From Eledone cirrhosa (taxonomy: Eukaryota): a stretch of DNA of 64,000 nt. Shown piece by piece: positions 1,926 through 52,269 of the stretch (position 1 is the first letter of the stretch; each line of letters begins with the position of its first letter). The notes beneath the pieces were generated by a model. The model had not been told where the DNA came from and ran no database searches. It saw only the letters and a program-made list of their open reading frames with translations. The DNA is taken from the NCBI GenBank assembly GCA_964016885.1, contig OZ024765.1, forward strand, positions 1,302,001 to 1,366,000, in the 5' to 3' direction. Made by a program: the position numbers and the translations under genes.

Positions 1926-2841
1926 GATATGTATAGAAATTTGGTTGATTGAAAATCTGCCGACTTTTTCTTAACAGATGTAAAGCACTCCACGCTTTTT
2001 GTTCATCCAGAGTTTTCAACGTATTTTTTTGACTAAAGAAATTTTTAGCCTGATAGTGGGATTTAGAACTCTCTAAGAAATGGGGAAAAAATGAGTATTG
2101 ACATACATGTACAACAGTACTCATCTTTTTCCATTTCTCTGAGGGTTCTAAACCCCACTATCAGGTTAAATATCTTTAGTCAAAAAATACAGTGAAAGCT
2201 TCTATTTCTAATTAGTTAAATACATGTTATGAATGTCTAATATTTTATTTTCTTATTGGGAAAGTAGAGGAAATGACTGTAAGAGTCATTAATGAGAGGA
2301 AAAGAGGGGCAAAACAAGGACTCAAGGGCCACACATATCTGTGCACACACACATATTGTTATACTTTGGGAGGGTCAGGCCAAATTCAAAAACGGAATAT
2401 ATACATATATGGTGGGAGATCACTGAAATAACATCACTGATTTCCGCTTTCGTAAACCATATATATATATATATATATATATATGAAAAAGTATGACCCC
2501 GACGCAGAGCTCAAGCTGTCGAAACGGCTTGAGCTCTGCTATCGGGGTCATACTTTTTCCTATTACCCACTCTACTACCCTAAGTATTGAGTACTCTGGT
2601 GCGTTATGGTCCATTTGGTTCCTTACCACAATTCCTTTGTTATATATATATATATAAATGAGGTGTTTCCGTAGGAAAGGTAAAGGAAAAGAGAGTGCTC
2701 TATGTAGGCTACAGAGCTTTTTAGTTATGTAATACACAACATAAGATAATTAATTCATTTACCAAAGGTTTCTTGAAGACAGACGAGCTTATGTCTGCCT
2801 TCAATCATCAGAACAAATTTATTAAAAATATATATATATAT

Positions 2842-3250
2842 AATTGTTTCTACTTTAGGCACAAGGCCAGCAATTACCCAGTGCATTACTGGTACTTTAT
2901 TTTATCGACCCTGTAAGGATGAAAGGCAAAGTCAACCTCGGCGGGATTTGAACTCAGATGGTAAAGGGACGTAACTATGCTGGAAAGCATGGCGTCCAAC
3001 CCTCTACCGATACTGCCAATCCACCGCCCAATATATATATATATATAATGGTCTTTGATTTAAGTGAAAGGCTAACAATTTGAGGAGAGAGGGGAAAAGT
3101 GGATTAAATCGACCCAATACATTACTGGTACTTTATTTTATCGACCCTCGTAGGTATGAAAGGCCAAGCTAACCTCGGAGGGATTTCAACTCAGAACGTA
3201 AAGGGCCGTAACTCTATGCTGCAAAGCATGGAGTCGGACGCTCTACCGAT
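2842..3250 (-). mobile_element. Two tRNA-derived SINE copies
   Basis: A box tggcagtatcggtag, B box gagttcaaatcc, core gcctttcatccttacggggtcgataaaataaagtaccag (resembles a Meta/Sauria-type SINE central domain). Other copies at 5345-5725, 24440-24572, 47665-47853, 52605-52945 and 63772-63957. Confidence 0.85.
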
Positions 3251-5162
3251 AAAAGCTACGTGCTATAACAGTGTCAATACTTAGTAAACACTAACATCAT
3301 AACACTAACATCATAATAACACTAACATCATAAGCAGTAACTGAATTCAGTGTCGGTATTATACGTACCTATAACGAAAGATTACCCAAGGATTTTTTTT
3401 TTTTTTTGCTAAACAAAAAAGTTTTGCTAATATTATTTATTGCCGTGGTTAACTTTGCGTTTCATCATTGAGAGGTCGATAAAATAAAGTACCAGTAATG
3501 TACTTAGGTAATTGCTGGCCTTGTGCCAAAAGTTGAAACAATTATTTATTTTAAATTTTTTTTAAGGAACGTAATTTACCATATTAAAAATTGTTTAAAT
3601 ACAAGAAAATGAAACTACAATATATAAACACACACACACACATATATATATATATGTGCGTGTGTGTATATATATATATATATATATATATATATATATA
3701 CACACACACACACACACATATATATATACATACACACACACACACACAGGATGTCCTGAAAATGTATATATAAATACACACACACACACACACACATATA
3801 TATATATATATATATATATATATATATATATTATACTCTAGAATATTATACACCAGAAAATCTGTCGAGTGCTCCTGAATCAGTTATAAACATTTTTGTT
3901 GAATTACCAACAAATTGAATATCCCTTCTGCTTATATATATCTATATAACTAAAAGCTAAATTCTCTCATAATAAAATAACTTAACATTCGAACCCGTAA
4001 CATTGCTTTCTAGCTAACCACCTTCTCTTCCCCCACACAAGACAATACACTGCTTATCACTATAAATGGTAACTCAGTGCAATTCGCAGATTACGACGAC
4101 GAACCCGAAGTTCACTCACCACAGACTTCGTCTGTCCCCTCTCTATCTCTCTCTCGCCTTTGGCCTACCCCACTCCCTCTCAACATCTATGAACCTGCCC
4201 TCTGGGGCAATAAATAATTCCGACCTTAACTATCAACGCATCTCTCTAAAAGTAACCAGTATAATAAAACCCCTACCATAACATTTTGATTAAGATATCT
4301 ACAAACCACTCTCTCCTATTTCTCCAACCCCTGCATATCTTTCTCTCTCTCCCCTCTCCCCTACTTTTCTCTCTTCCTTTTCTACTCTATCTTCCCCAAC
4401 AACCCCACTTAAGGGTATTTACATTGTACATTTTACCATTCTGCTCTGAGGATACAGTGGTCACAGCATTGGATATTTGAGTTCTGCAAATACTTGTAAA
4501 TTTGCACATAGCATAACTAGGCTGTAGTACCACCGTGGAAACATTTGTAAGCACACGGAATAAATTACCTTTTTATTATTCATTCTTTATATACACTCCG
4601 GAATACAAAAGGATCAGGAACTAAGTTTCTTCAACAATTCTTCCATAACTCGTAGAGTAACCTCTCACCGTACGTCAACCATATCCAGTGTAGTAATTAA
4701 CCATTACTACATCTAGGATAATCCTATACCTTATATATATATATATAAGTAGAAGTGGTATTTAATTTGTTATATATATATAAGGGTGAAAGCAGTGATT
4801 CTTTGCTTAAACTTTAATCTGTTATTTTAATAAATATTTGCTCTACGGTTCTTATATATTTGACATATATTTATCCTTATCGAGCCTTCTTTGGATTTTA
4901 GTCTTCAAATGTATTATTATTACTATATATACACACACAGATATATGTATAAATATACACATATCAACACACATATATATATATTTATTTATTTATATAT
5001 ATATACACACACATAAACACACACATGTGTTTGTGTCCAGGTTACATGGGAAGGATTTTTTGACGTTTTGCCTAAAATAAAAGTTGTCATTCTTCGACAA
5101 TTATTTAAAAAGAACGGAAAAAAGTTTTCTTTTAGTGAAAACAAAATATAAAACCAGCTTAC

Positions 5163-48804: not shown

Positions 48805-49470
48805 GGGAGTAGAGTGTAGTTTATAGAGTTATACTTGGTTGATTTTGGTTAACAGAACCAACACTACCACTACTACTACTGTTACCACCAACACCACTAC
48901 TACTTCTAACACCTACACTACCACCACCACTGTTGAGGGAAGTAGAGTGTAGTTTATAGAGAAATATACTTGGTTTTGGTCAACCAACGGACAGAACCAA
49001 AACTACCACTACTACCACCACCACCACCACTACTACTACTACTAACACCAACACTACCACCACTACTACTACTACTACCACCACCACCACCACTACTACT
49101 ACTACTAACACCTACACTACCACAACTAACACCTACACTGCTGAGGGAAGTAGAGTGTAGCTTATAGAGAAATATACTTGGTTTTGGTCAACCAATGGAC
49201 AGAACCAAAACTACCACTACTACTACTACAACCACCACCACTACCACCACCACCATTACTACTACTAACACCTACACTGTTGAGGGAAGAAGAGTGTAGT
49301 TTATAGAGAAATATACTTGGTTTCGGTCAACCAACGGACAGCACCAACATTACTACCACCACCACCACCACTACTACTACTATCACTACCACTAGCACCA
49401 CCACTACTACTAACACCTACACCACCATCACCACTACCACCCACAACACCACTACCACTATTAATGCCAT
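48805..49470. repeat. Four degenerate tandem units with embedded (CTA/CCA)n
   Basis: Anchor gagggaagtagagtgtagtttatagagaaatatacttgg repeats with variable trinucleotide spacers. Confidence 0.85.
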
Positions 49471-52269
49471 CAGCACCTCCACAGCGTTATTACATCAGTA
49501 TATGCATGTGTATATGTGTGTGTGTATATATATATATATATATACATATTTACGATATATACACATATATTTAGGGTGATCCCCCAAAATGTATACATAC
49601 TTCGATATATAGATATATATATACATATACATACATACACACACACCACAACCACCACCACCACTACTACAACTACTACATATATCTCAATTTTCCGAAA
49701 CTAAATTATATCGCGCTGATATATTTATTGGTATCGATTTAATATAACAAATATAAATATAAAAAAAAATGAGATAAAACTAAATAAAAACCAGAGGCAC
49801 GAGACCTTGGAGGTAATTATATTACACAGGGTATATATATAGTGTATATATATCTATATATATAGTATATAAACACACACAGACACGCGGATATAGTATA
49901 TATACACACATCTATATATATATAGTCGTGGTAATTCCCGTTTTTCGTGAAAACGTTAGCAGTGTGTGTATATATTTATATATAGGGTGTACCCCAAAAA
50001 TGTATACATACTTTGATCAGAATGTTGTTGAAGTGTGTATACATTTTTGGGGGACATTGTGTAGTATGCTAAAAATAAACGGAAAGCAAGCTACATAGTA
50101 TTATATATAATATATATACACACACACACACACACACGAAACATTCGGGACCCCGAATGTTTAGAAGTATTTGTGTATATGTATATCTGTGCCTGCATAT
50201 ATTTATATGTAACGGCAGGAGCTCAACCGTCGGGGTCCCGAATGTTTCGTGTGTGTGTGTGTGTGTGTATATATATTATATATAATACTATGTAGCTTGC
50301 TTTCCGTATATATATATATACATATATAACGAAGGAATTGTGGTAAGGAACCAGATGGACCATAACGCACCAGAGTACTCAATACTTAGGGTAGTAGAGT
50401 GGGAAATAGGAAAGAGTATGACCCCGACGGCAGAGTTCAAGCCGTTTCGAAACGGCTTGAGCTCTGCCGTCGGGGTCATACTTTTTCCTATATATATATA
50501 TATACATACACATATATGTGTGTATGTGTGAATGTTTTGTCCGTACGTAGATGAAATATACTACACAAAGGGATGGTGATGAAGCAGGAGAAAGGGTGTA
50601 TATATATATATATATATATATATATATATATATATATATATATATATGTGTGTGTGTGTGTGTACAATATCTATATATATACTGAAGACTAACGCGAGAT
50701 TGCGAAATATACACACGTAATGAAACATTAATACACAATGAAACATATATATATAATTGTTTCTACTTTTGGCACAAGGCCAGCAATTACCCCAGTGTAT
50801 TACTGGTACTTTATTTTACTGACCCCGTAAGGATGAAAGGAAAAATTAAACATATATATATATATATAATGAAACACACACACACATATATATATATATA
50901 GAAACACACACACATATATATAATGAAACACACACACACACATATATAGAGACACACACACATATATAGACACACACACATATATATATAGACACACACA
51001 CATATAGACACACACACATATATATATAGAGACACACACATATATATATATAGACACACACACACATATATATACATACACATATATATGTGTACGGATC
51101 TATACACACACACACTCTCGTAGAATACACACGTATATATATATATATATATATAAATATATAAATAAATATATAAATAAATACATAATATATATATATA
51201 AATAAATACATAATATATATATATATGTAAATACATAATATATTTATATATAAATAAATACATAATATATATATATATAAATACATACATTATATATATA
51301 TAAATAAATACATAATATATATATATATAAATAAATACATAATATATATATATATATAACATAACATATATATAGAGAGAAAGAGAGACCGAGATACAGG
51401 GTGTCCCCCAAAAATATATACACTGTTCATCAGCATTCTAATAAATATTGCCTGTTACAAGTAATTGATACATTTCTGGGGACATACTATATATATCTAT
51501 CTATATATCTATCTATCTATATATATCTATATATAGTGAATATATTGTGACATGTAACGGTCGATATACAATAACATTTTAAAGTGAAACTTCGTCATAT
51601 CACAATTACAAACACACACACACACACATATATATATATATATATATATATATGAGTATATGTTTCAATCAGGGCTAACAGATCTAGTCCTGTAGAAGCG
51701 ATTTCTATATTAAATTATATATATATATATATACACACACACATGTATATATACACAAAACACACATAAATATATCTCACATCTCTCTATCTATATATAC
51801 ACACACATATATGTATATATATCTGTATATACACACATCTATATATAAGTATTGATATGAGATTGTCAGCTTACAAGAACACACACACACACACACATAT
51901 ATATCTATACATTACACATACTACACTACATATATACACACACACTATATATATAGTGTGTGTATATATATATACAGTATATATACTATATATAGTTAGG
52001 TTTTTCAACTTACATTCAACGAGAACTGTTTTGGATTAAACTAAAATAACAGAAATGTACATCTGCATACATACATACATACACACACATATATATATAT
52101 ATATATACATACATAATCACATATATACACACACAGATCAGCATGCACACACATATATATCTATTGCATATACACACATACATACCTGTGCGTATATATA
52201 TACACACATGTATATATTTATACATACATATAGATAGATATATATCTTTATATTAAAGGTTGTCAACTT

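Follow-up and report, generated by a model that had tools for sequence, protein, structure and literature searches.

Why should hammerhead-ribozyme motifs recur along a single 64-kb stretch of the genome of Eledone cirrhosa, mostly beside (TA)n microsatellites? The stretch (64,000 nucleotides of GenBank assembly GCA_964016885.1, contig OZ024765.1, positions 1,302,001 to 1,366,000 of the forward strand; hereafter the window) was described in an earlier note as carrying eight hammerheads, in hosts taken to be short, separate non-coding elements. We conclude that the hammerheads very probably belong to the pseudo-long terminal repeats (pLTRs) of at least six families of Penelope-like elements (PLEs), the short pieces lodged in TA repeats being the 3' ends of those elements. 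Four kinds of observation support this reading: linkage to coding sequence for a reverse transcriptase (RT) and a GIY-YIG endonuclease, fixed 3' ends at (TA)n or (CA)n, variable 5' ends, and arms of inverted tail or pLTR sequence.

We began with the motifs themselves. The window, part of a 3.0-Gb assembly, has 37% G+C and abundant TA runs. The CTGANGA...GAAA core was present at all eight sites of the earlier note. The bare core is weakly enriched, with 14 in the window versus about 8 per shuffle (6/200 and 11/200 block shuffles). For structured motifs the controls were dinucleotide shuffles in blocks of 100 or 500 nt, 300 of each. Cores with a stem II of at least 3 bp numbered nine, versus a shuffle mean of 1.2–1.3 (0/300 with both block sizes), and motifs that passed a three-stem test (stem II at least 3, stem III at least 1 and stem I at least 4 bp) numbered four (2811−, 7716+, 9780+ and 10447−), versus 0.02 (again 0/300 with both). 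The structured motifs thus exceed their shuffled controls, a comparison that the earlier note had proposed. In the copies at 6118, 25165 and 43757, point changes damage one stem that is present in other copies of the family. A ninth hammerhead core, at 14814 on the minus strand (site 14783–14814), was absent from the earlier list. The motif placed at 9778–9810 has its core there, but its stem III is longer than had been supposed and the motif reaches ~9824.

Seven of the eight proposed hammerheads held up and one did not. The match at 50680–50712 (core at 50682) lacks stem I and pairs over 3 bp in stem II, and no second candidate turned up in a genome search that skips simple repeats, so that a rare decayed copy could escape it. 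Because of this combination we regard it as unsupported, have rejected it as a member of any family, and consider it likely to be a chance match. Of the 244 Rfam matches in the window, the 150 strongest included none to a hammerhead family. A dispersed 95-bp tandem repeat lies at window positions 29420–29700, 32590–32760, 37990–38320 and 39510–40250. CTGATGA occurs in 2/17 of its listed copies, which mostly read CTGATCA, and a stem II is lacking; we rejected this satellite (29.4–40.2 kb) as a retrozyme.

The seven remaining sites fall in five genome-wide repeat families and a sixth, short one. A genome search returned, as first-look candidates rather than copy numbers, 2282 for family A (the 6113 site; an exact 26-nt anchor of this family occurs 1468 times), 3154 for B (2761), 71 for C (7712), 2790 for D (10392), 1780 for E (43726; the 25133 copy is 74% identical to it), 1799 for F (9778) and 107 for G, the family of the ninth site at 14814. 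The families have sharply defined 3' ends, which lie against (TA)n or (CA)n far more often than the window background of 4.8% TA and 1.1% CA would give. (TA)4 lies within 6 nt of the 3' end in 29/30 copies of A, 16/18 of B, 19/20 of C and 17/20 of D, and TA or CA stands at the 3' end in 27/36 copies of E and 15/20 of F. The hosts therefore do abut TA/CA repeats, and the proposal of several families lodged in microsatellites at about one per 8 kb is borne out. The position of the ribozyme is alike in every family, 50–140 nt from the 3' end. By comparison with these fixed 3' ends, the 5' extent upstream of the cut site is variable, from −1 to at least 1499 nt in A (30 loci picked by their downstream part) and from 3 to 679 nt in B. 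At many loci (e.g. L003, L080, L084, L099, L114 and L379), pieces of different PLE families are stacked within one TA run, which suggests that TA arrays act as repeated landing pads for PLE pieces.

Longer genomic copies of A, B, C, D, F and G run into PLE coding sequence, so that the Penelope RT/GIY-YIG linkage sought by the earlier note was found for five of the six families represented among its sites and for the ninth site. Its view of the hosts as separate non-coding elements mostly fails: most of them are 3' ends of autonomous PLEs, truncated at variable 5' points. Family D provides the most complete case. At locus L091, direct pLTRs 3855 bp apart flank an RT/GIY-YIG open reading frame (ORF), broken once there, with an inverted copy upstream; inverted pairs also occur in L093–L097. 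The ORF contains RWR, DKT, GLYRDD, a CxCX5C linker, GIY-YIG, CxxC and CxH. According to section 11 of PMC8557442, the hallmarks of the Hydra clade are RWK, DKT, the CxCX5C linker, CxxC and CxH, the lack of CCHH, and (TA)n targets. The family D protein is 33–39% identical to 23 relatives, one of them from Argonauta, and the relatives of one ORF include proteins of Argonauta hians and Octopus bimaculoides. Direct-repeat pLTRs, an inverted 5' copy and an optional tail are present in L091–L097, and also in short copies of B, D and F. The piece of family D in the window has 206 nt that are 100% identical at 11 other listed places, and the tail/pLTR junctions of this family vary from copy to copy.

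In the other families the link is shorter. A Hydra-type ORF ends ~1.05 kb upstream of family C in L156 and L157; in family F, pLTR and tail are unbroken into the start of such an ORF (RIRWRTFF) in L154; and in family B a decayed one ends ~840 bp upstream in L201. These three families were assigned to the Hydra type by tblastn to Hydra-type proteins. To judge from their motifs, D in full, and B, C and F in part, are of the Hydra clade. For family A, RT and GIY-YIG sequences lie upstream in L160, L161 and L164; the RT segment (L160 and L161) is by eye close to Neptune1_Ap, and the endonuclease in L164 has a CxxxxCxxC linker. By this linker and the likeness of the RT, A is classed as Neptune type. 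Remnants of GIY-YIG stand immediately upstream of family G in L223, L230 and L240. A further Hydra family was seen in L155, a locus spanning C4:328175500–328185000, at 5025–7067 on the minus strand, with a 680-aa frame whose thumb region is by eye closely like that of Hydra-1_Obim; its hammerhead is related to that of family B, and a B copy lies in the adjoining TA run.

The hammerhead core is intact in 26/30 copies of A, 15/20 of B, 17/20 of C, 18/20 of D, 24/39 of E, 16/20 of F and 4/14 of G, and the three-stem test was passed by 9/20 copies of B, 15/20 of C, 14/20 of D, 12/20 of F and 11/39 of E. B, C, D and F have a stem I of 4–8 bp. A palindromic stem III, for which PMC4209133 proposes action as a dimer, is found in A, C, D, E and G. 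In an alignment of 31 copies of family B, 88.5% of cells in the stems are paired, compared with 35–48% in slid controls, and 14 cells (in five pairs) have changed on both sides, a number found in 0/500 shuffles. Likewise, stem II reads GGGC/GCCC in family A and GGAC/GTCC in E, so that stem covariation across copies, suggested earlier as a check, is seen both within B and between A and E. B, D and F share a base mismatch beneath stem II, in agreement with the Hydra hammerheads described in PMC8557442. The earlier note was right to identify these motifs as type I hammerheads of the PLE kind.

Several points weigh against the view that these are functional ribozymes of PLE ends. The link of family F to an ORF depends on one locus and covers the N-terminal part of the ORF; that of family B depends on a single decayed locus in which TA runs intervene. 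Clades were assigned from motifs and from comparison by eye with the alignment in PMC8557442, and Pfam gave no significant RT or GIY-YIG match at curated cut-offs for five PLE ORF pieces and one relative. For family E, no linked ORF was found in 39 loci in which 1.5 kb of flank was covered. Families A and G have a stem I of ~2 bp and passed the full three-stem test in 0/30 and 0/14 copies. The covariation analysis retained 31 of 49 distinct rows, with 18 dropped as mis-anchored, deleted or redundant, and because these rows are related its result is supportive rather than a probability. Minimum-energy folds of monomers gave, by eye, a complete three-way hammerhead in 0/8 folded window copies; such modelled folds would fit dependence on a dimer or on protein, and would equally fit inactivity. 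Finally, cleavage of the elements' RNA by their own hammerheads, likely as it is, is a prediction from sequence.

We believe that the short pieces were likely left by target-primed reverse transcription that halted early. From published PLE work, the GIY-YIG endonuclease would be expected to nick (TA)n, and RT would start at one of two internal sites, the pLTR end or the tail end, and would usually halt within a few hundred bases. As the ribozyme lies ~50–140 nt from these starts, many fragments retain it. For the element PAc, two internal RT start sites are described as defining the tail in vitro (PMC11167929). In the parent elements the ribozyme is predicted to cut transcripts that are tandem or read-through, working as a dimer in the families with a palindromic stem III (A, C, D, E and G), and the element's own protein possibly aids cleavage. 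According to the PAc results in PMC11167929, the ribozyme of that element needs protein in order to cut, insertion in vitro does not require the ribozyme, and no RNA-seq ends mark its cut site. Most of the dispersed copies are dead remnants.

Could the short pieces instead be independent non-autonomous families, or retrozymes, amplified in trans by PLE proteins? We consider this quite improbable as a general explanation, given that copies of A, B, C, D, F and G extend into the coding sequence of PLEs, that the junctions of D vary among copies and that no head-to-tail arrays occur in the 64-kb window. What speaks for it comes chiefly from family E, which is ~240 nt long: 22/39 loci share a AAAATGGCTGAC start 91–119 nt upstream of the core, the shared sequence mostly ends ~100–125 nt upstream, longer matches being by eye microsatellite, and an ORF is lacking as noted above. 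Even here a second hit was found in only 5/39 loci, some of them inverted, and 5' ends are also scattered through the ribozyme. The hammerhead and 3' part of E are homologous to those of A (score 60, compared with a shuffled maximum of 51). The family at 25133 and 43726 may thus, from its sequence, be the one that fits the non-autonomous reading; of the distinct non-autonomous ribozyme families proposed earlier it is the only candidate left, and a reading of the pieces as retrozymes mostly fails too. Copies that start by eye at the 5' edge of the hammerhead make up ~18/30 in F and 12/30 in B, and in F TATAAATA stands 37 nt before the core in 10/15 related rows. Taken together, these starts and this sequence indicate that short transcripts may be copied too, although short F copies lack the upstream TATA-like box.

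A different possibility accepts that the elements are PLE ends but holds that the hammerhead of A and G no longer cleaves, being a protein-binding or RT-pausing fold, or a relic. We regard this as unlikely but worth serious consideration. It would account for the stem I of ~2 bp in these families, and is in keeping with reports that PAc ribozyme mutants still insert in vitro, with no RNA-seq reads beginning or ending at the cut site (PMC11167929), and that minimal motifs cleave poorly in vitro (PMC4209133). Yet the core of A is intact in 26/30 copies, the same core is retained across unrelated stems in six families, and helix I of the Penelope element of D. virilis is likewise of 2 bp. By contrast, it is barely credible that AT-rich repetitive DNA has thrown up so short a motif by chance. 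The bare core does occur about eight times per shuffled window, and chance holds for 50682 and for the 95-bp satellite, with its CTGATGA in 2/17 listed copies; the excess of three-stem motifs, their fixed place 50–140 nt from the 3' end and the covariation of their stems refute it for seven of the eight sites.

We then asked what the 5' ends of the copies reveal. For family A, the profile comprised minus-strand copies whose 5' end is joined to a TA run, out of 725. Counting from the predicted cut site, 55 ends fell at −56 to −26 (1.8/nt), nine at −24 to −1, inside the ribozyme (0.4/nt), five at +2/+3 and 231 at about −1 to +28 (7.7/nt). The middle anchor is kept in 18/30 copies, compared with 28–29/30 for the others, and correction for this lifts 0.4 to ~0.6/nt. 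By eye, 18/32 listed loci start at +5 to +10. Short A copies are plain pieces between TA runs (20 selected copies; 19 loci inspected), and the pile-up was rejected as a second 3' end or a tail boundary, only ~11 places ending within 30 nt after the ribozyme. On this evidence, the 5' ends of A avoid the folded ribozyme and gather just past the cut site.

The pile-up was also rejected as a general PLE feature, as it is not repeated in E or F. Family E has no step (24 downstream versus 20 inside on one strand, with anchors kept in 12/39 and 8/39 copies), and F has none at the cut site, its 5' ends lying over −30 to +1 and clustering at the AT-rich pLTR end among the first 100 matches listed. In F and B, 5' ends gather at the 5' edge of the ribozyme, in F ~30 nt after a TATA-like box, and this edge of the F ribozyme may be a transcription start. 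TATAAATA was seen before the F core in L186–L200 and L137; it is possibly the promoter of the element, in which case the ribozyme would stand right where the transcript begins. That the 5' ends of A are a genomic record of ribozyme action in the germ line, with about one-third of A copies derived from the cleaved 3' product, we consider doubtful. The peak lies 5–10 nt off the cut site, and the C-rich template could itself stop RT; since neither E nor F has a step, a sequence-specific RT stop on the C-rich tract of A is at least as likely as a cleavage footprint. A literature search aimed at 5' truncation near the PLE cut site returned PMC11167929 as its single match.

Much of what we describe has precedent. 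Cervera and de la Pena (2014; PMC4209133) interpret minimal hammerheads dispersed through genomes as probably belonging to truncated PLEs, and describe pairs on opposite strands and a multitude of families in one genome; Craig et al. (2021; PMC8557442) list Hydra-1_Obim of Octopus bimaculoides, with a hammerhead and a preference for (TA)n. Already in print, Octopus included, are hammerheads in pLTRs, truncated dispersal and the targeting of (TA)n by elements of the Hydra and Neptune types. Like the Hydra-clade PLEs described in PMC8557442, the Hydra-type elements reported here have RWK-like and DKT motifs, a CxCX5C linker and, at the C terminus, GIY-YIG flanked by CxxC and CxH, together with a hammerhead close to the 3' end, a (TA)n target, tails, and 5' copies in inverted orientation. 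For O. bimaculoides that source lists one family; here there are four Hydra-type families, whose hammerheads differ from that of Hydra-1_oBim and whose 3' UTRs (untranslated regions) are longer, at 0.8–1.4 kb. The dispersed single motifs, the opposite-strand pairs 100–700 bp apart, the extra base after A9, the palindromic stem III and the several unrelated families per genome are as described for metazoan minimal PLE hammerheads in PMC4209133, in a part that names no mollusc; the longer, non-palindromic stem III of B and F departs from them. Family A resembles Neptune1_Ap (PMC8557442) in its RT segment, its CX2-5CxxC linker and its (TA)n bias, and differs from the Neptune clade in a stem I of only 2 bp. 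Animal non-LTR retrozymes, as described in PMC7229834 and bioRxiv 10.64898/2026.07.22.740005, are also short non-coding sequences that are akin to PLE pLTRs and bear a type I hammerhead; they form head-to-tail repeats of 150–450 bp and circular RNAs, whereas the pieces here are single and truncated from coding elements. The words 'hammerhead' and 'ribozyme' were not found by a word search of the main text of a paper on O. vulgaris repeats (PMC13282606).

The copies in the window are collected in Table 1. More fragments of family F lie at 16995–17049, 39148–39229, 6821–6891 and 51677–51723, two of them being downstream-only pieces without a ribozyme.

Table 1. PLE pieces and hammerhead cores in the window, with predicted cut positions.
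Feature	Positions	Strand	Core	Details
Family B, 5'-truncated end (pLTR end and tail) of a likely Hydra-clade PLE	2656..2827	-	2811	Stem I 8 bp, stem II 12 bp, stem III ACC-TTT-GGT; predicted cut 2760/2759
Family A, 5'-truncated 3' end of a Neptune-type PLE	5859..6236	+	6118	Minimal hammerhead; stem II GGGC/GCCC, palindromic ACGT stem III, stem I 2 bp family-wide; predicted cut 6145/6146
Family F, decayed copy with inverted arm	6450..6660	-		Core damaged; absent from the earlier note's list
Family C, 5'-truncated end of a Hydra-clade PLE	7648..7811	+	7716	Long bulged stem II, stem I 4-5 bp, palindromic stem III ATATATAT with one change in the window copy; predicted cut 7761/7762
Family F, pLTR end and tail of a Hydra-clade PLE	9772..9909	+	9780	3-bp stem II with T.T base mismatch, stem III with 8-nt loop, stem I 6 bp; predicted cut 9818/9819
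Family D of a young Hydra-clade PLE, inverted tail (~10556-10648) joined to 5'-truncated pLTR (10349-10555)	10349..10648	-	10447	Stem I 8 bp, palindromic stem III; predicted cut 10398/10397
Family G, old PLE end with inverted arm	14650..15125	-	14814	Minimal hammerhead
Family E copy, starts at hammerhead 5' edge	25045..25170	-	25165	Stem I 5 bp, stem II damaged in the window copy
Family E copy, candidate non-autonomous element	43620..43815	-	43757	
Core-like match, no family	50680..50712	+		No stem I; likely chance

Other features were seen beside these. Two tRNA-like matches, at 27774–27845 on the minus strand (47 bits) and 24697–24760 on the plus strand (30 bits), are perhaps heads of short interspersed elements (SINEs). 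A short repeat core, probably that of an octopus SINE, has ten copies in the window (2933, 5610, 10069, 24485, 26507, 39356, 47759, 52679, 52853 and 63866). A 151-aa open frame at 13062–13517 on the plus strand resembles a genuine coding exon and may be akin to a mitochondrial complex I assembly factor. Short perfect inverted repeats in TA/CA runs at 50118–50268 and ~50412–50485 look like miniature inverted-repeat transposable elements or fold-back insertions. Elsewhere in the genome, L154 (320–3934, plus strand) and L162 (4048–7662, minus strand) hold near-identical open 1204-aa endonuclease–RT frames of a young non-LTR retrotransposon, with an upstream ORF present in L162.

As discoveries these families are of small value, being ordinary additions to known kinds. 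Their use lies partly in annotation, because at least six PLE families, with thousands of candidates, are scattered through the TA repeats of this genome, family D being very young. Long-stemmed natural ribozymes of the Hydra type are also made available for assay. The 5'-end profile of family A provides a cheap route to a question of the field, whether PLE hammerheads cut in vivo; if its reading as a record of cleavage were true, these ends would supply the in vivo evidence of such cutting that is missing from the literature.

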